A stretch of 64,000 nt of DNA from positions 3,465 through 67,464 of the forward strand of contig JAQUNW010000002.1 of the NCBI GenBank assembly GCA_028717385.1, written 5' to 3'. This DNA is from Dehalococcoidales bacterium (GTDB lineage: Bacteria; Chloroflexota; Dehalococcoidia; Dehalococcoidales; CSSed11-197). The position numbers were made by a program, and so were the translations under genes. Under the pieces are notes generated by a model. That model searched no databases. It saw only the letters and a program-made list of their open reading frames with translations, and was not told where the DNA came from. Shown here piece after piece: positions 12,007-41,988 of the stretch (position 1 is the first letter of the stretch; every line of letters starts with the position of its first letter).

Positions 12007-12354
12007 ATGTACATCGCTTCTCTGGAAAATACACCGAAAACCAAAATAGATATGGAGGGGGCTTATAAAGTATTCAAGCAGATTCCCCTTTCTAGCAAAC
12101 ATGGGGCACCAACCTGTTCTTTCCGTGTGTTTACTCTAGAACCCGGCGGCCATACTCCGCTTCACCGCCATGAAAATGAACACATGAACTATATAATCGA
12201 AGGTGCAGGCAACCTGGTGATTCAGGGCAAACATTACAACGTCAAGAAAGGCGATTTTGCTCTGGTATTACCAGGAGAGGAACATCAATACCGCAACACC
12301 TCAACCGATGAACCAATGGTAATGATCTGTGCTGTTCCCAAGGAATACGAATAA
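12007..12354 (+). CDS. cupin-domain protein
   Basis: 'GGHTPLHRHENEHMNYIIEG...GEEHQYRN' cupin motifs 1 and 2. Confidence 0.8.
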   Translation: MYIASLENTPKTKIDMEGAYKVFKQIPLSSKHGAPTCSFRVFTLEPGGHTPLHRHENEHMNYIIEGAGNLVIQGKHYNVKKGDFALVLPGEEHQYRNTSTDEPMVMICAVPKEYE

Positions 12355-12472
12355 GGATTAATATTTAATTATGCTAATTCGCTATTGATATCAACATACG
12401 CTTTACACAACTTATATGCCTGTTCTAGGGAGAGTGCAACATTAGCTTCCATTTACGTTCCTTTTAGGACAT

Positions 12473-12504
12473 AAAAAAGTGGCAGCGGCTGGATTTGGAC
12501 CAGC
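12473..12504. repeat. distal copy of the tRNA-Met 3' end (putative att remnant); also forms a hairpin downstream of the HesB-like gene
   Basis: aaaaaagtggcagcgGctggatttgGaccagC versus 14696-14727 aaaaaagtggcagcgActggatttgAaccagT. 29 of 32 positions are identical, and two of the three differences are compensatory in the T-stem. On the minus strand it reads AGCGGCTGG-TCCAAAT-CCAGCCGCT, then GCCAC, then TTTTTT. Confidence 0.75.
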
Positions 12505-12522
12505 CGCTTTAACCAGCGGCTA

Positions 12523-12822
12523 TCAACAACTGCAACCTTCACAGCCCGATTGCCCGGGTTTGCTGATTACAAATCCCTCTCCGTCCATTGATTGGATATA
12601 ATCAATCGTATTTCCGCCTGTAAAGGGTTTAACATTATCAGAAACCAAAAGGTTAATACTGTTTACCTGAATTGCGGTTTCATTCTCTCTTAACTCATCC
12701 AGAGCTAATCCTAAACGAGGCCCACCTCAACCAGCTTCAATCGTTATGCGTAAATATTTCCCAACATTTTCATCTAGTATTTCTTTTATTTTATCTCGGG
12801 CAGCATCAGTAATTTGTAACAA
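12523..12822 (-). CDS. HesB/IscA-like selenoprotein (in-frame UGA = Sec at codon 32)
   Basis: Absent from the track. Manual translation is MLQITDAARDKIKEILDENVGKYLRITIEAG-U-GGPRLGLALDELRENETAIQVNSINLLVSDNVKPFTGGNTIDYIQSMDGEGFVISKPGQSGCEGCSC. TGA lies at 12729-12727, where IscA-type proteins have the GGC(S)G cysteine. TTG start at 12822 has RBS AAGGA 7 nt upstream. Confidence 0.75.
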
Positions 12823-12866
12823 TATGTTTTCCTTTTCACCAATCAATGGTAATTATTATCGGTACT

Positions 12867-12916
12867 ACAGGTTTTATTCTATCATAAAAGAAGGTTGTTA
12901 AAATAATAAAACCTGT
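12867..12916. repeat. 12-bp perfect inverted repeat (ACAGGTTTTATT ... AATAAAACCTGT) with 26-nt spacer
   Basis: Read directly. Lies 45-95 nt upstream of the HesB-like start and about 150 nt downstream of ORF 13066-13407. Confidence 0.6.
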
Positions 12917-13065
12917 AAAGCAAGGCCAAACATGTTTAAGACATATGATTTCCTGGGAAACGTGATCATTAAAACTCTGTCAATGGTTTTAATGTAACTG
13001 CGAAAAAAGCTGTAATAAAGCGATGACGCCAGCGGGTAACAGGGCGACCTGTTTCTGTATTAAAT

Positions 13066-13407
13066 TTAGCGTACCTGGTTTATTTTTTCCGCCAGTTCAT
13101 CAGGGTTGCCGGGAGAAAGCACCATTCGCTGATAATTCCAGCCATTTAGAAAAATCACCAGGTGCTTCTTTCTAATTGTAGCGCACCAGAATTCTGCCCC
13201 TAAAGCAGTGTGGTATGTGCCGGCTTTAATAATAAACGGGATATTCGTTCCCGGGGAGCGCACTGCCAGCATGTTCCAGTCTGGCTTTTCAGCCAAGGCA
13301 CCGGTGATATTGACCAGCGGAACAGAAAACGATCCGTTGAAAGATATATATTTCTCTAAAAGATTAAGCTTAATGTCCAAATGATCTTGGTTAAGATAAA
13401 TCTTCAT
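13066..13407 (-). CDS. hypothetical protein (possibly bacterial PH-like domain)
   Basis: 113-aa track ORF. 'AVRSPGTNIPFIIKAGTY' weakly recalls bPH-type domains. Assignment is tentative. Confidence 0.4.
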   Translation of the reverse strand: MKIYLNQDHLDIKLNLLEKYISFNGSFSVPLVNITGALAEKPDWNMLAVRSPGTNIPFIIKAGTYHTALGAEFWCATIRKKHLVIFLNGWNYQRMVLSPGNPDELAEKINQVR

Positions 13408-13504: not shown

Positions 13505-13753
13505 TTATTTGCCATTATTGTTCCTCACTGACAACAAGGTGGAAGCATAATGCGCTTTCCTTAATACTATTTTCCTCTCCACCTGGAGATCATTGTCCTG
13601 TTTCTCTGACTGCCAACAGTTGAAGTTGTTACAATACCAGAGGAAGCCTTTCAGTTTATCCGAGTAACACTCTATTGTTCCGTAGGATTTGCCTTCTACC
13701 TTGCAGGATAGTAAAAACTCATCGATTGCCTGTTTTACGCTTATATTAGACAT
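13505..13753 (-). pseudogene. tyrosine recombinase/phage integrase, N-terminal SAM-like domain remnant
   Basis: 'KQAIDEFLLSCKVEGKSYGTIECYSDKLKGFLWYC' is a typical integrase N-terminal core-binding region. The ORF stops after 82 aa and there is no catalytic domain (R..HxxR..Y) downstream. Confidence 0.6.
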
Positions 13754-13930: not shown

Positions 13931-14692
13931 GTGTCAAAATTCCTAAACACTTGGAGTGCTTTTGCTCAAATCGAAAGTATAATTAGCAGCTCCACGAAAA
14001 AGCTTTGTTTGATTACTCCATATATCAAAATGCCTGAATCATTATTAGAGCGCTTGATATATAAATCTAACAGTGGCGTTGATATAACAATCGTATGCAG
14101 GGAGCAAGACTTAAAATCTCAAGAAAGAGACGCCTTAAGCAAGATACGCAATCTAGAACTTCGCTTTCTTGAAAAGCTTCATGCTAAGTGTTTTTACAAT
14201 GAAGAAAACATGGTTATTACTTCTTTGAATTTATATGAGACTTCTCAAGGAAACCGCGAAATGGGGATACTCCTCACCTCATCGGATGATTCTTCAACGT
14301 TCGATGAGGCGGTAAGAGAAGCTGAATTCATCGTCCAATCTGCAAAACAATCGAATAGTATAGAGCATAAGTTTACAAAGCCTAAATATATAAAACAGTC
14401 TTTATCAGAAAAACCATCTGCCACAAATCAAACAGTTCAAAAAAGCAAATCGGTGCTTGCCGAAATAGCGGATTTCATGTTCGGAGAGCCAACTAATTCC
14501 AGAGGTTATTGCATACGTTGCCACGGTTTAATTGATAAGAATCCTGATAAACCTCTTTGTGGCAGTTGCTTTGAGATCTGGCGCAGGGTTAGTAATCGTA
14601 ATTTCACCGAAAATTACTGCCACATTTGCGGTAAACCAGCAAAAACCTCATTTGCAAAACCTCAGTGCAAGACTTGTTATAAGAGGCAATAA
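13931..14692 (+). CDS. PLD-like (single HKD-type) domain protein with two C-terminal CxxC zinc ribbons
   Basis: 'KLHAKCFYNEENMVITSLNL' resembles the HxK(x4)D(x6)GSxN motif, with E and T substitutions. C-terminus is 'CIRCHG..CGSCFE' and 'CHICGK..CKTCYK'. GTG start. Confidence 0.65.
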   Translation: MSKFLNTWSAFAQIESIISSSTKKLCLITPYIKMPESLLERLIYKSNSGVDITIVCREQDLKSQERDALSKIRNLELRFLEKLHAKCFYNEENMVITSLNLYETSQGNREMGILLTSSDDSSTFDEAVREAEFIVQSAKQSNSIEHKFTKPKYIKQSLSEKPSATNQTVQKSKSVLAEIADFMFGEPTNSRGYCIRCHGLIDKNPDKPLCGSCFEIWRRVSNRNFTENYCHICGKPAKTSFAKPQCKTCYKRQ

Positions 14693-14702
14693 ATGAAAAA
14701 AG

Positions 14703-14774
14703 TGGCAGCGACTGGATTTGAACCAGTGACCAAGGGCTTATGAGTCCCCTGCTCTACCACTGAGCTACGCTGCC
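14703..14774 (-). tRNA. tRNA-Met (anticodon CAT; could alternatively be a lysidine-modified tRNA-Ile2)
   Basis: The minus strand folds by eye as GGCAGCG TA GCTC AGTGGTA GAGC A GGGGA CTCATAA GCCCT TGGTC ACTGG TTCAAAT CCAGT CGCTGCC A. G1-C72 is paired, so this is not an initiator. No encoded CCA. Confidence 0.88.
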
Positions 14775-26419: not shown

Positions 26420-26551
26420 TAATATCGGCCAGCGGTTGTTATTCAGGCGATAAGATTTCTCGTATATAAACAGGCGCTTTACTGATATTCCAAAATTATA
26501 AAGAGCCTGATGGGACTTAAAACCTTTAATTCAGTATGATATAATGGCCTT

Positions 26552-26645
26552 GGAGGCGGATAGGCCCTGGTGGGTCTCGCGGACTTCAAATCCGTTGGCG
26601 GGGACCTGGTCGCCGCGGGGGGTTCGATTCCCTCCCCCTCCGCCA
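26552..26645 (+). tRNA. selC: tRNA-Sec (anticodon TCA)
   Basis: GGAGGCGG acceptor. Anticodon loop is C-T-TCA-AA, with the anticodon at 26586-26588. It has a long variable arm (gttggcggggacctggtcgccgc), T-loop GGTTCGATTCC and 3' ..CTCCG-CCA. It lies directly upstream of selD. Confidence 0.88.
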
Positions 26646-26684: not shown

Positions 26685-27734
26685 ATGCCTGATAAACCAG
26701 TAAATCTTATGAGCTTGTCGGAATACTCCGGCTGAGCAGCCAAAATAAGTCCGGGAGACTTAGAAAAAGCACTTAGCGGCCTGGAGTTTAAGTACAACCC
26801 CAACGTACTTGTAGGGATTGAAACTAACGACGATGCCGGCGTTTACCGCATTTCAGACGATACAGCATTGGTTCAAACGCTTGATTTTATTACCGCCATA
26901 GGAGACGGTGAAGGTTACACCTTTGGCCAAATAGCGGCGGCGAATTCCCTTTCGGACGTTTGGGCAATGGGAGGCAAGCCTATTACCGCTATGAGTATTG
27001 TTTGTTTTCCCTCAGATAAACTCGAGACATCAGTACTGCGTTCAATAATTTTGGGCGCATTGGATAAAGTTAATGAGGCCGGAGTGGCTCTGGTTGGTGG
27101 CCACAGTGTAAGGGATAATGAGCTTAAATTTGGCCTCTCGGTTACCGGTATTGTTCATCCGGACCGGATTATTACTAATAAAGGGGCTAGGCAGGGCGAT
27201 AAACTGATATTAACAAAACCGCTCGGTACCGGAATATTAAACACAGCCATGAAAGCCGGCATGCTGGAAGAAAGCCTTAAAAAGAAGACAGTAGGTTATA
27301 TGACTCGCTTGAACAAAGCCGCAGGAGAAGTTATGGCCGAGATGGGAGCCAGCGCTGCTACTGATATTACCGGTTTTGGCTTGATCGGGCATACCTGGGA
27401 AATGGCCAGCGGGAGCAATGTTGCAGTTCAGTTGGAGGTAACAAAGGTACCTGTATTGGAGAAGGTAATTGAATTCTCCCGTATGGGTATTGTGCCGGGT
27501 AAACTACACGATAATATTAATTATTATGCATGCCGAGTTGAGGGCGATCTGAAAAACGATGAGGACTGGATGAGTATCCTCAACGATCCTCAAACATCTG
27601 GTGGATTGCTTATTTCTGTTTCTGAAGATAAAGCCGGGGATATGCTCCGTTTCATACACGATTCCGGAAGTCCTGAGGCGGCCATTATTGGCCAGGTAAC
27701 CGAAGGGCACAAAGGGCATATATATCTAAAATGA
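26685..27734 (+). CDS. selD: selenide, water dikinase (selenophosphate synthetase), Sec-containing (UGA at 26733-26735)
   Basis: Track shows only 26868-27734. Manual upstream translation is MPDKPVNLMSLSEYSG-U-AAKISPGDLEKALSGLEF...DDAGVYRISDDTALVQTLDF, in frame. U aligns with the catalytic Cys/Sec of SelD (E. coli ..GAGCGCKISP..). RBS is AAGGAGG. Confidence 0.9.
26746..26762 (+). promoter_or_regulatory. candidate SECIS hairpin for selD
   Basis: TAAGTC-CGGGA-GACTTA, a 6-bp stem with a 5-nt G-rich loop. It starts 11 nt after the UGA. Confidence 0.5.
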
Positions 27735-29134
27735 GCAAGGCTGAATTAAACCCGGATAAAGACAAGCTTAATCAGGAAATGCGCAAGCTGCCCCAGGTAG
27801 AGGTGCTTCTTTCCAGCCATGAACTGGAAACTCCTGTAAAACGTTACAGCCGGCCGTTGGTTATGCAGGCGATATCCAGGGTACTCTCTTTTGCCCGTGC
27901 TGGTATTGCCAACGGTAAGCCTTCTCCTTCCCAAGAAGAATTGGTTAAGCTTATAATTGCCGATCTTGATGAAAACTGGCCAGGCTTCGGCAGCCCGGTA
28001 ATTAATGCCACCGGAGTTGTTTTGCACACCAATTTGGGAAGAGCCCCACTACCGAAGGCGGCTTTGAAAGCTGTCAACCATCTCTGCGGGGATTTTTCTG
28101 TATTGGAATATGATTTGAAAACTGGCAAGCGCGGGCGGCGCGCCCAGGACCTTGAAAAATTGCTTGCGATTCTTACCGGCACCGAAACTGCCATGGTGGT
28201 TAATAATAATGCGGCTGCGGTGCTGCTCATTCTAGTTGCCTTGGCCAACGGTCGTGAGGCCATAGTATCTCGAGGTGAATTGGTACAAATTGGCGGTGGT
28301 TTTCGGGTACCCGAGATTATGGAGCAGAGTGGGGTTAAGCTGACAGAAGTAGGTACAACAAACCAGACCTATTTGATCGACTACGAAAAGGCGATCAACG
28401 AAAACACCGGCTTGCTGCTGAAGGTTCATCGTTCCAACTTTGCTTTGCGTGGTTTCATCAACGAAGTGAGCGTTGCCGAACTCATGAAACTGGGCAAGAG
28501 GCACCACCTGCCAGTAGTGTATGACGTTGGGAGCGGATCATTTTTTGATACACAGGAATATGGAATGGAATATGAACCTACCGTTCCCGATGCGGTTAAA
28601 GAGGGAGCGGATATAATCTGCTTTTCCGGCGATAAGCTCTTTGGGGCATCACAAGCTGGGATTATCGTAGGAAAAAAAGAATACATAGATAAAATGCGTT
28701 CTCATCAGCTGCTGCGGGCAATACGGATAGATAAAATGGCAACTGCTGTACTTGAAGCCGTTACCCTGCTTTACCTTAATAAGGAAGCAAAACAGGCGGT
28801 TCCGGTATGGCACATGATGGGAATCACCGCAGAAGAAATCAGCGAGCGGGCAAAGGCGCTTGCTGCCAAAATAAACTTGTCAGGAATTACGGCAGAAGTA
28901 AAACCTGGTTTGAGCATGGTTGGGGGCGGTTCTCTTCCTGACCAGACACTGAGCACCTTTGTGGTGACTATCAAGCCTGAAATCTCATTAGAGGCCTTCT
29001 CATCACGCTTGCGGGTGAGTACGCCACCTGTTATTGGGCGTATAGAAGATGAGCGCTTTGTTCTTGACCTGCGCACCGTTTTTCCCGAGCAAGAAGAAGT
29101 TCTTCTGCAACAGATAACGGAAAATGCCAGATAG
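27731..29134 (+). CDS. selA: L-seryl-tRNA(Sec) selenium transferase
   Basis: 467 aa. 'INATGVVLHTNLGRA' and the PLP region 'FSGDKLFGASQAGIIVG'. ATG overlaps the selD stop (ATGA). Confidence 0.9.
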   Translation: MSKAELNPDKDKLNQEMRKLPQVEVLLSSHELETPVKRYSRPLVMQAISRVLSFARAGIANGKPSPSQEELVKLIIADLDENWPGFGSPVINATGVVLHTNLGRAPLPKAALKAVNHLCGDFSVLEYDLKTGKRGRRAQDLEKLLAILTGTETAMVVNNNAAAVLLILVALANGREAIVSRGELVQIGGGFRVPEIMEQSGVKLTEVGTTNQTYLIDYEKAINENTGLLLKVHRSNFALRGFINEVSVAELMKLGKRHHLPVVYDVGSGSFFDTQEYGMEYEPTVPDAVKEGADIICFSGDKLFGASQAGIIVGKKEYIDKMRSHQLLRAIRIDKMATAVLEAVTLLYLNKEAKQAVPVWHMMGITAEEISERAKALAAKINLSGITAEVKPGLSMVGGGSLPDQTLSTFVVTIKPEISLEAFSSRLRVSTPPVIGRIEDERFVLDLRTVFPEQEEVLLQQITENAR

Positions 29135-29139
29135 CTTTC

Positions 29140-31014
29140 ATGTTGACTATTGGTACAGCCGGCCATATAGACCACGGTAAATCCAGCCTTGTAAAAGCCC
29201 TTACTGAGATTGACCCAGACCGCTTGCCGGAGGAAAAAATCCGTGGTATGACACTGGATCTGGGGTTCGCCTGGCTCAGTCTTCCATCAGGGGAAAAAGT
29301 CGGTATAGTCGATGTTCCTGGCCATGAACATTTTGTTCGTAATGTTATACCCGGTATAAGCGGGATTGACGGTGTTATTCTACTTGTGGCTGCCGATGAT
29401 GGCTGGATGCCCCAGACCGAAGAACACATGCGAATTATTAATTTGCTGGGTATACAAAACTGCATCATCGCACTAAATAAAATAGACATTGTAACAGATG
29501 AAGAGTGGCTTGAATTGGTTGAGGCGGACATCACCGAAAGACTGAAAGGCACCTCATTGGAAGGATCCCCGATTATTCGGATTAGTGCACGTGAAGGCAC
29601 CGGAATAAATGAGCTGAAGGATGCCATTTCCAGTTTGGTTCAGCGGGTAAAAACTGGTCGCGATATCGGAAAGCCCCGCCTTCCGGTTGATCGTGTTTTC
29701 ATTATTAAGGGGAGTGGGGTGGTTGTCACCGGCACCCTCCATTTTGGAGCTCTTTCAGCAGGGGACGACATAGTAGTTCTTCCTGCAAATACCCCTGCTC
29801 ATATCAGAAGCATAGAATGCTATAAGGAGACCTCAAAGAAAGTCGAACCAGGGTGCAGAGTGGCTTTAAACCTGAGTGGAGTTAAAAAAGATGACCTGGG
29901 CCGTGGAGATGTCATAGTCCCTGCATGGGGAGATAAAAGTACTAGTAAAATCGTAAATACACGAATAAGTCTTTTGCTTAACCCCGAGTTTAGCCTGAAA
30001 AATGGGGAAGAGGTGCTTATATACATTGAAACCGGAGAGTACATAAGCCGGGTTGCCCTGATGGGTACCAGGGAACTTATTGGGGGAGACACAGGCTTTG
30101 TACAGCTAAAGCTTGACCGGGAAGCACCAGTATACATTGGCCAGCGATTAATCGTCCGCAGACAATCTCCCGCTGATACAATCGGGGGAGGCGTCGTGCT
30201 AGATCCGTTTGCCAGCCCGTTTAAAGCGCGGTATACAGACACAACAATATCCTGGCTGCACCGGCGTGAGGACTTGCAGGTCGAAAACCTAATTTTGACT
30301 GAACTGGAAAAAAAACACTTCGTTGAACGTAATGGTGTTCTTTCGTACTCCTTTTATTCGCAGGATGATATCAATGCCGTGGTGGATGAACTTGTTAAAC
30401 AAAAGACCGTTGGAATCAAAGCCGGCTATCTGTTCCAATTGGAAGACTGGCAGGAGAAGAAGAATGAGACGCGGAGAATTATTGATCTTGAGCACCAGAA
30501 AAATCCTCTTAAGCGCGGAATAACCGGAACCGCTTTGCAGGTTAAGATTGGCTTACCCCGGGAAATACTCACAACCATGGTTGAAGAGATGCTTACTGAT
30601 GGTATTATTTACCGTGACGGGGAGTGGCTTGCGATATCAGGATACAAACCTGGATTGTCATCACAACAGCAAGCAGCTGAAGGGCAGATAATGTCCCTTT
30701 TTAAAGCGGCTCCTTTTGCACCCCCGACCCTCAAGGAGTTACTCAGGCAGTTTCCAGGCAATGAAGATGTTATATATTTCCTGATGGATAAAGGGGAGTT
30801 AGTGCAATTTGCCGACGGAATATTGCTTGAAAAAATTACCTACAATAAAATCAAGAGCGAGGTGACCGCTTTTCTCAAGGCTAATGGGCAACTAGCAATA
30901 CAAGATATGAACAAGTTGTTTGGCCTTACCAGGAAGTACACGATCCCTGTTCTTGGACAGCTTGATAAGGAAAAGGTAACCAAGAGAGAGGGAGACGTCA
31001 GGGTTCTTGGCTGA
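29140..31014 (+). CDS. selB: selenocysteine-specific translation elongation factor
   Basis: 'IGTAGHIDHGKSSLVKALT' G1, 'DVPGHEHF' G3, 'NKIDIV' G4, plus a long C-terminal winged-helix extension (624 aa). Confidence 0.9.
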   Translation: MLTIGTAGHIDHGKSSLVKALTEIDPDRLPEEKIRGMTLDLGFAWLSLPSGEKVGIVDVPGHEHFVRNVIPGISGIDGVILLVAADDGWMPQTEEHMRIINLLGIQNCIIALNKIDIVTDEEWLELVEADITERLKGTSLEGSPIIRISAREGTGINELKDAISSLVQRVKTGRDIGKPRLPVDRVFIIKGSGVVVTGTLHFGALSAGDDIVVLPANTPAHIRSIECYKETSKKVEPGCRVALNLSGVKKDDLGRGDVIVPAWGDKSTSKIVNTRISLLLNPEFSLKNGEEVLIYIETGEYISRVALMGTRELIGGDTGFVQLKLDREAPVYIGQRLIVRRQSPADTIGGGVVLDPFASPFKARYTDTTISWLHRREDLQVENLILTELEKKHFVERNGVLSYSFYSQDDINAVVDELVKQKTVGIKAGYLFQLEDWQEKKNETRRIIDLEHQKNPLKRGITGTALQVKIGLPREILTTMVEEMLTDGIIYRDGEWLAISGYKPGLSSQQQAAEGQIMSLFKAAPFAPPTLKELLRQFPGNEDVIYFLMDKGELVQFADGILLEKITYNKIKSEVTAFLKANGQLAIQDMNKLFGLTRKYTIPVLGQLDKEKVTKREGDVRVLG

Positions 31015-41001: not shown

Positions 41002-41988
41002 ATGGAGCGCCCAACAAGCGAATTGGATCATTTCCCCAGGCTGTTAAGAGTCTACCAGATACTCGCCGATAGTAAAGAAGGAGTTACCGCGAAGACATTG
41101 TCCAAAAATTTAGAGGTTAATGTACGCACAGTCTATCGAGATATCAAAGAACTGGAACAGGCAGGAGTCCCTATTTGGGAGGAGCAATCCAGGTATCGTA
41201 TCAGCAACAAGCATTTTCTGCCGCCGCTAAACCTGACAGTGCCGGAAGCAATCCAGGTTTTCCTTTCATTGCGGTTGCTGTTGCAGTATGCACGGCGAAA
41301 CAGTGTTGACGTGGCCAGCCTGTTTCTTAAATTAAAGAAGATTGTACCTGTGCCGTTGCAGGATGAAATCGCCAAAACTTCGCGGTGGATGCAGGATTTG
41401 CCATCAAATCCGCGGCTGAACCGTAATATTTCATTGTTGGCACAATCCTGGGTTTCCCGCTTAAGGGCAAAAATATTATATAAGTCTCTTGACGCTGAGA
41501 CTGCTACGAGCCGTATGATAGAGCCTTATTTCATAGAGCCTGCAGCCAGCGGGCGCTCATGTTATGTAATTGCATATTGCCTGTTGAAGAAAGAGATCCG
41601 TACCTTTAAAGTAGAAAGAATTCAGAGTGTTCATATAACTGAAGAAAAGTACGAGATTCCCAAAGAATTCGATGCTAATCGTTATCTTAGTCCGTCACTC
41701 GGCATCATGGTAACCAGTGATGAATTGACAAAAATCAAACTCAGGTTCAAACAGAAGATTGCACGCATTATCGAGGAATCTGTTTGGCATCCATCTCAGA
41801 AACTGGTTAATAACGAAGACGGATCTCTTACAATGACGATGGAAATAAACGAATCTCCTGAATTGGTAAAATGGGTACTTGGATGGGGGGACAGCGTTGA
41901 AGTGGTTTCGCCGGACTGGCTTCGGGATGATATAAAAAACCAGACAGCCAGGATGGCTGCTGTCTATTCTAAAACAAAACATTTTTGA
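41002..41988 (+). CDS. HTH-WYL domain transcriptional regulator (PafBC/BrxR-like architecture)
   Basis: N-terminal wHTH 'VTAKTLSKNLEVNVRTVYRDIKELEQAGVPI', central WYL region 'SCYVIAYCLLKKEIRTFKVERIQSV', and a C-terminal extension. Confidence 0.8.
   Translation: MERPTSELDHFPRLLRVYQILADSKEGVTAKTLSKNLEVNVRTVYRDIKELEQAGVPIWEEQSRYRISNKHFLPPLNLTVPEAIQVFLSLRLLLQYARRNSVDVASLFLKLKKIVPVPLQDEIAKTSRWMQDLPSNPRLNRNISLLAQSWVSRLRAKILYKSLDAETATSRMIEPYFIEPAASGRSCYVIAYCLLKKEIRTFKVERIQSVHITEEKYEIPKEFDANRYLSPSLGIMVTSDELTKIKLRFKQKIARIIEESVWHPSQKLVNNEDGSLTMTMEINESPELVKWVLGWGDSVEVVSPDWLRDDIKNQTARMAAVYSKTKHF

Follow-up and report, generated by a model that had tools for sequence, protein, structure and literature searches.

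A very probable HesB/IscA-like selenoprotein gene with an in-frame UGA and an overlapping SECIS hairpin in a Dehalococcoidales bacterium

A 64,000-nucleotide stretch of contig JAQUNW010000002.1 from a Dehalococcoidales bacterium (here called the window) carries, on its minus strand at positions 12822 to 12523, what is very probably a functional gene for a 99-residue selenoprotein of the IscA/HesB type, in which SelB and an RNA hairpin would direct selenocysteine (Sec) to codon 32 and whose product would act as a carrier of iron or of iron-sulfur (Fe-S) clusters. The gene is an unannotated new member of the HesB-like selenoproteins, an established prokaryotic family that accounted for 11 of 285 bacterial selenoproteins in 2006 (Zhang et al. 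2006, PMC1794560) and that a 2026 review places under TIGR01911 with the motif UxGP (PMC13188914). Selenium incorporation has been demonstrated only in a HesB-like selenoprotein of Methanococcus maripaludis, by 75Se labelling, and its role was described as not clear (PMC11097638). Selenoprotein counts of 46-49 have been recorded for Dehalococcoidia metagenome-assembled genomes (MAGs; PMC13326102). The window gene is distinguished only by its place in a Dehalococcoidia clade that scores below the cutoffs of TIGR01911 and NF038090, and by its CxxCxC tail.

The coding sequence consists of 99 codons and a stop. Translation starts at TTG 12822-12820, which aligns with the ATG of the orthologues at loci L001, L003 and L025, and a Shine-Dalgarno-like AAGGA (12830-12834, minus strand) lies 7 nt upstream of it; AAAGGA occurs at the same place upstream of orthologue genes. 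A promoter scan, of a kind that may not suit this phylum, found no sigma-70-like promoter upstream of the gene. Within the 99 sense codons there is a single in-frame TGA (12729-12727), which is codon 32 and opens the motif U-G-G-P, and the frame ends at TGA 12525-12523 with TAG directly after it. The conceptual protein reads LLQITDAARDKIKEILDENVGKYLRITIEAG up to the first TGA and GGPRLGLALDELRENETAIQVNSINLLVSDNVKPFTGGNTIDYIQSMDGEGFVISKPGQSGCEGCSC from there to the second, with U32, C94, C97 and C99 as its key residues. A preliminary description of this DNA had given the coordinates, the TTG start, the ribosome binding site, the 99-codon frame and the lone TGA correctly to the base, and the peptide strings quoted in it (ITDAARDKIKEIL, LRITIEAG-U-GGPRLGLALDE and SGCEGCSC) are all present. 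Because one Cys codon has been replaced by UGA, the gene is missed by ORF finders: the mechanical ORF list holds only pieces of 39 and 41 amino acids, and neither half passes the usual length cutoff, as had been claimed.

A search over 5.8 billion proteins returned 35 homologues with full-length coverage, the best of them 98% identical, and scans of genome and metagenome contigs contributed 97 further loci. The closest named genomes with a homologue are MAGs of Dehalococcoidia/Dehalococcoidales; the more distant ones are Desulfuromonadales. Codon 32 was read in 103 homologous copies on other contigs, spanning Dehalococcoidia, Desulfuromonadales and other clades. It is TGA in 97 copies, which is far above what chance would give, TGT in three and TGC in three, with no TAA or TAG, and none of the orthologues terminates at this position. 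The protein is conserved past the TGA in every clade (for example GGPRLGLALDE[LP]KENE), and dN/dS for codons 33-99 of the window gene against 16 ungapped orthologues is 0.09-0.41 (Nei-Gojobori). The part of the gene past the TGA is therefore translated and constrained, and purifying selection continues beyond the interruption. Mean pS is lower downstream of the TGA (0.34) than upstream (0.45), and this reduced synonymous divergence points to an additional constraint at the nucleotide level.

These comparisons bear directly on the possibility that the locus is a pseudogene, a Cys-type IscA/HesB gene that lost its function recently through a nonsense mutation from TGY to TGA and whose two halves are dead remnants. 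Such an origin would need only a single-base change from TGT or TGC, Cys-type orthologues do exist, and neither half is long enough for a gene call. TGA, however, is the majority state across deeply diverged clades, the codons past it are under purifying selection, the frame is intact through the conserved C-terminal Cys motif, a hairpin co-evolves at SECIS distance, and the Sec machinery is present. The comparative data effectively refute the pseudogene, and we regard it as exceedingly improbable.

Database translations of the homologues suggested another explanation, that UGA encodes Trp or Gly throughout the genome (genetic code 4 or 25). In most of the protein homologues W fills the U column, another W comes right behind the C-terminal 'SC', and the tails beyond it are not conserved; these W read-throughs (P0001-P0030) pass the true stop and acquire spurious C-terminal extensions of 1-60 residues. 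The W at the two TGA positions arises where metagenome gene callers read through them, an artefact of alternative-code calling on short contigs. The homologues with a sense codon at position 32 carry Cys, never Trp or Gly: Cys stands at the U column in six of the 35 proteins, each 99 amino acids long, and the DNA confirms true Cys codons, TGT in L001 and TGC in L002. Elsewhere in the window UGA is an ordinary stop, since 13 of its 63 long ORFs end at TGA, most of them with another stop a few codons on, and reassignment to code 4 or 25 is thereby ruled out. A dedicated tRNA-Sec(UCA) and selABD also speak against it, and we give this explanation virtually no credence.

A bacterial SECIS core hairpin lies at 12708-12690 on the minus strand, recognized by its fold, by frozen synonymous sites, by compensatory changes and by RNAalifold. 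In the window it reads UUAGCUC-UGGAU-GAGUUAA, with 12708-12702 paired to 12696-12690 in a 7-bp stem that includes one G.U pair. The hairpin proposed in the preliminary description is present and is conserved as the SECIS core. The hairpin spans 18-36 nt downstream of the UGA, and the apical loop UGGAU (12701-12697) starts 25 nt past it. A small apical loop containing G is the criterion for bacterial SECIS elements (PMC1088965), and the window has a stem-loop just past the UGA with a small loop of this kind. Taken in isolation the hairpin is of modest stability (-6.5 kcal/mol, z = -2.2), and folds of its 50-76-nt context are not significantly more stable than shuffled sequences (z about -1.5). 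The minimum free energy (MFE) fold of the 76-nt context contains a longer outer helix, which is unsupported by the alignment described next; RNAalifold keeps only the apical hairpin of 6-7 bp.

When 85 distinct copies with TGA were aligned over the region from the TGA to +60, which needed no gaps, entropy at the third positions of codons 40-43 (GCT CTG GAT GAG) was 0.09-0.32 bits, compared with about 1-2 bits in flanking codons. The hairpin corresponds to columns 22-28 and 34-40 of this alignment and is predicted independently by RNAalifold. When the two arms are set opposite each other, 95% of cells are paired, and the proportion falls to 14-56% when the 3' partner is slid by 1-3 columns. The pair 24-38 is G-C in 60 sequences, A-U in 17 and G-U in 6, giving compensation between G-C and A-U in 17-18 sequences, and the hairpin of L064 shows a double change from C-G to U-A. 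The UGGAU loop is invariant and sits within a near-invariant core, GGCUCUGGAUGAGCC, that is common to copies across phyla. All 96 of 96 TGA copies keep the hairpin, with a median of -9.8 and a weakest value of -2.7 kcal/mol. The 85-sequence alignment is a clean example of overlapping RNA and protein constraints, and the curated models could be broadened with it. When 12300-13000 was searched against Rfam with a permissive E-value, matches were at chance level only, and no Rfam model matched the HesB-like SECIS.

Among eight Cys copies the hairpin is lost in two, L101 (0.0 kcal/mol) and the Cys paralogue at L099, where the loss has occurred at synonymous sites (GCA CTC GAT GAA, -1.5 kcal/mol), and it is weakened in one more. 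Most Cys copies retain it, so part of the nucleotide conservation could be inertia or reflect another constraint. Cys copies with a hairpin match the 'fossil SECIS' shown for a Cys-type HesB-like gene (PMC1794560).

The Sec machinery is encoded about 14-18 kb from the HesB-like gene, in agreement with the earlier claim that the window holds tRNA-Sec, SelD, SelA and SelB. On the plus strand, tRNA-Sec (UCA) occupies 26551-26644 (ARAGORN; Rfam RF01852, 70.2 bits) and is followed by selD for selenophosphate synthetase (26685-27734), selA for L-seryl-tRNA(Sec) selenium transferase (27731-29134; PF03841, 474.9 bits) and selB for the Sec-specific elongation factor that binds SECIS hairpins (29140-31014), the last with GTP_EFTU, SelB beta-barrel and SelB winged-helix 2 and 3 domains. 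SelD, too, is a selenoprotein: from ATG 26685 the frame crosses an in-frame TGA at 26733-26735 within SEYSG-U-AAKISPGDL, and the ORF track shows the post-TGA part only (288 amino acids from 26868). A candidate selD hairpin, AAGUC-CGGGA-GACUU, was picked out by eye 11 nt past the UGA and is not the predicted MFE fold.

A third selenoprotein gene of the window is probably an FdhA-like frame of 357+542 codons (58563-55861, minus strand), whose TGA at 57492-57490 falls in the classic Sec motif of formate dehydrogenase alpha (FdhA), NNIDHCARL-U-HSPTVAGL. Its folded SECIS is a hairpin of the type GUGGCC-GGUCU-GGCCAC located 14 nt past the UGA, with a GGUCU pentaloop. Both this SECIS and the candidate selD hairpin have 5-nt, G-containing loops closed by C-G, as does the HesB-like hairpin. 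Among the other long TGA-interrupted frames of the window only the FdhA-like frame looks genuine; at 41986 the TGA is a true stop followed by the start of an in-frame DnaQ-like gene, and the remaining frames look spurious.

For profile and structure searches the conceptual protein was used with U replaced by C. The best-scoring NCBIfam model is NF038090 'IscA_HesB_Se', which aligns residues 1-99 with profile positions 1-101 (62.4 bits, E 3.9e-17), and PF01521 is passed with 30.6 against a gathering score of 26.3; the profile alignment runs across the TGA. PDB entries 2APN (E 3.6e-10) and 1NWB align over residues 2-98, likewise crossing the TGA. In both structures U32 is matched to the Cys of GGCSG and the C-terminal Cys cluster to CGC, which bears out the proposed IscA/HesB layout with UGA where the first cluster-ligand Cys would be. 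The TIGRFAMs family of HesB-like selenoproteins that the preliminary description mentioned does exist, as TIGR01911 'HesB_rel_seleno', and the reading of the gene as a HesB-like selenoprotein is supported, but every specific NCBIfam model has a curated cutoff above the score of the window protein: 29.9 versus 66.35 bits for TIGR01911, 62.4 versus 85 for NF038090, and 47.4 versus 58.8 for TIGR00049. Because these cutoffs are missed, the window gene is placed in a sister clade of the TIGR01911 and NF038090 models and is not a formal member of either.

The sequence features by which the literature defines HesB-like selenoproteins are found here, namely a PF01521 domain, UGA at the first conserved Cys (UxGP), a Sec/Cys pair, a SECIS and the Sec machinery. 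Like other members of that family the window protein is a small, single-domain IscA/HesB protein of about 100 amino acids, with Sec for the first conserved Cys within U-x-G-P and with a SECIS hairpin overlapping the LALDE codons after Sec; Sec/Cys orthologue pairs and fossil SECIS in Cys forms (Desulfitobacterium hafniense, PMC1794560) are further points in common. It differs in belonging to a Dehalococcoidia clade outside TIGR01911 and in its C-x-x-C-x-C tail. With the NF038090 clade it shares an end-to-end alignment and the SECIS core GGCUCUGGAUGAGCC, which is common to the window gene and to members among L073-L099. True members of that clade, however, have the form 'MQGGU[AS]GPSLGLALDEP...GSCSSGSCG', and representatives of the 'MQGGU[AS]GPSLGLALDEP' clade score 128-138 bits against NF038090, whereas those from the Dehalococcoidia, Desulfuromonadales and Chloroflexota clades reach 55-67, all below 85.

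The gene and the Dehalococcoidia clade to which it belongs are invisible to standard ORF callers, and pipelines keyed to NF038090 would miss both. Public protein sets contain the clade only in the form of W read-throughs, which are mistranslations. Counts of the selenoproteome in this selenoprotein-rich class therefore likely miss the clade.

We infer that Sec is inserted in the source organism in the following way. The UGA at codon 32 would not be read as a stop during translation; SelB with Sec-tRNA(Sec) would bind the UGGAU hairpin and deliver Sec to the ribosome at this codon. The product would then have Sec in place of the first of three canonical cluster or iron ligands, which we take to be Cys35 in the numbering of E. 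coli IscA, with C94-x-x-C97-x-C99 supplying the remaining thiolates. Judged by its sequence, such a protein, with its selenolate ligand, may take up iron or an Fe-S cluster and pass it on, or it may carry out thiol/selenol redox chemistry of a related kind.

The carrier role is the part of this reading for which a competing account has some weight. The UGA could be recoded as described and Sec and CxxCxC could form a redox or metal-handling centre (serving, for example, in detoxification or as a chaperone) that is unrelated to cluster biogenesis; we consider this unlikely, though far from negligible. A disruption mutant of the M. maripaludis HesB-like gene has no nitrogen-fixation defect (PMC11097638), and no Fe-S assembly genes adjoin the window gene, which has a cupin, CysK and island remnants as neighbours. 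A-type carriers (C-Xn-C-G-C, at least 58.8 bits) have Cys where the window protein has Sec as first ligand, and its tail, C-E-G-C-S-C, is not the canonical CGC; in sister clades the last residues are a single C or CC. With respect to IscA, SufA and ErpA (TIGR00049; 2APN is HI1723 and 1NWB is Aq_1857), the window gene thus differs in its first ligand, in its CxxCxC tail, in a score below the TIGR00049 cutoff and in lying outside an isc/suf operon context. On the other side, the fold family, the first-ligand position and the presence of a C-terminal Cys cluster are those of the A-type carriers and the PF01521 threshold is passed, and a carrier of iron or Fe-S clusters is the role that we would favour.

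The terminal UGA (12525-12523), which follows Cys99, might also encode Sec and so create a C-terminal Cys-Sec (C-S-C-U) selenylsulfide centre by analogy with C-terminal-Sec proteins, but this is very unlikely. Of 88 distinct homologues, 62 have TGA as their terminal stop, compared with 44% in neighbouring long ORFs, and this TGA nearly always stands directly after Cys. A second Sec is unsupported: entire sub-clades use TAA or TAG as the stop, the residues that an in-frame extension would add are variable and lack conservation outside Dehalococcoidia, and the window has TAG immediately after the TGA and then a terminator. RNAalifold of the region 3' of the terminal stop gave no conserved hairpin for clade A and, for clade B, no more than a weak hairpin of 5 bp. 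A conserved string, TATTCNCTGA, does occur after the terminal TGA in Dehalococcoidia. In both Dehalococcoidia clades (L003-L056, for example L003 at about 3298 and L036 at about 3283) the sequence after the stop is 'TAT TCN CTG A...', which in frame would read 'YSLTSAMNSL' or 'YSLIGLLSD'; the window, with TGA-TAG, is without this string.

Two tandem HesB-like paralogues are present at several NF038090-type and Desulfuromonadales loci, often one with Sec and one with Cys. The codons are TGC (3097) and TGA (3834) in L075, TGA (2209) and TGT (2836) in L098, and TGA (1596) and TGC (2150) in L099; in L015 both copies (2710 and 3097) have TGA. By analogy with the Sec/Cys isogenes of methanogens, the tandem Sec/Cys paralogues may be a selenium-dependent pair of isoforms.

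On one side of the HesB-like gene lies a tRNA-Met gene, and on the other the 3' end of this tRNA is repeated. The tRNA-Met (CAU) is upstream on the same strand (14702-14774, minus), and a 31-nt direct repeat of its 3' end, 94% identical, pairs 12473-12503 with 14696-14726 at a distance of 2223 bp. The downstream copy doubles as an intrinsic terminator, found by a terminator scan at 12474-12508 (minus strand), with the form AGCGGCUGG-UCCAAAU-CCAGCCGCU followed by a T-run. Across loci the repeat is 31-42 nt long and contains the T-arm, the acceptor, CCA and the T-run. L022 has the same arrangement (241-276 and 737-772, spacing 496 bp), and L020 has three copies, at 1591-1632, 2074-2115 and 2847-2888, with a spacing of 483 bp; its 3-kb locus contains no intact tRNA. 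The downstream tRNA fragment is restricted to the nearest relatives, namely the window, L002, L020, L022, L026 and L031. A tRNA gene directly 3' of the HesB-like gene was considered and rejected; ARAGORN found none in 34 loci, and the T-arm-like string there is the tRNA-Met 3'-end repeat.

Three ORFs lie between the tRNA-Met and the HesB-like gene, at 13505-13753 (minus), 13931-14692 (plus) and 13066-13407 (minus). The ORFs between the repeats include a weak fragment resembling the SAM-like N-terminal domain of phage integrases (PF13495, E 0.0026, below cutoff), a PLD-like (HKD) protein ending in a double zinc ribbon, and a 113-amino-acid ORF without a Pfam match. Together the repeats and ORF remnants look like the att-type repeats of a decayed, tRNA-targeted islet that carries the selenoprotein gene. 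In several Dehalococcoidia loci tRNA genes are located no more than about 130-150 nt upstream of the HesB-like gene, for Gln, Met or Pro or as a Phe-Gly-Leu-Gln array (L005 45-118, L022 199-272, L028 2808-2884 and L032 1438-1779). The HesB-like gene therefore recurrently adjoins tRNA genes and not tRNA-Met alone.
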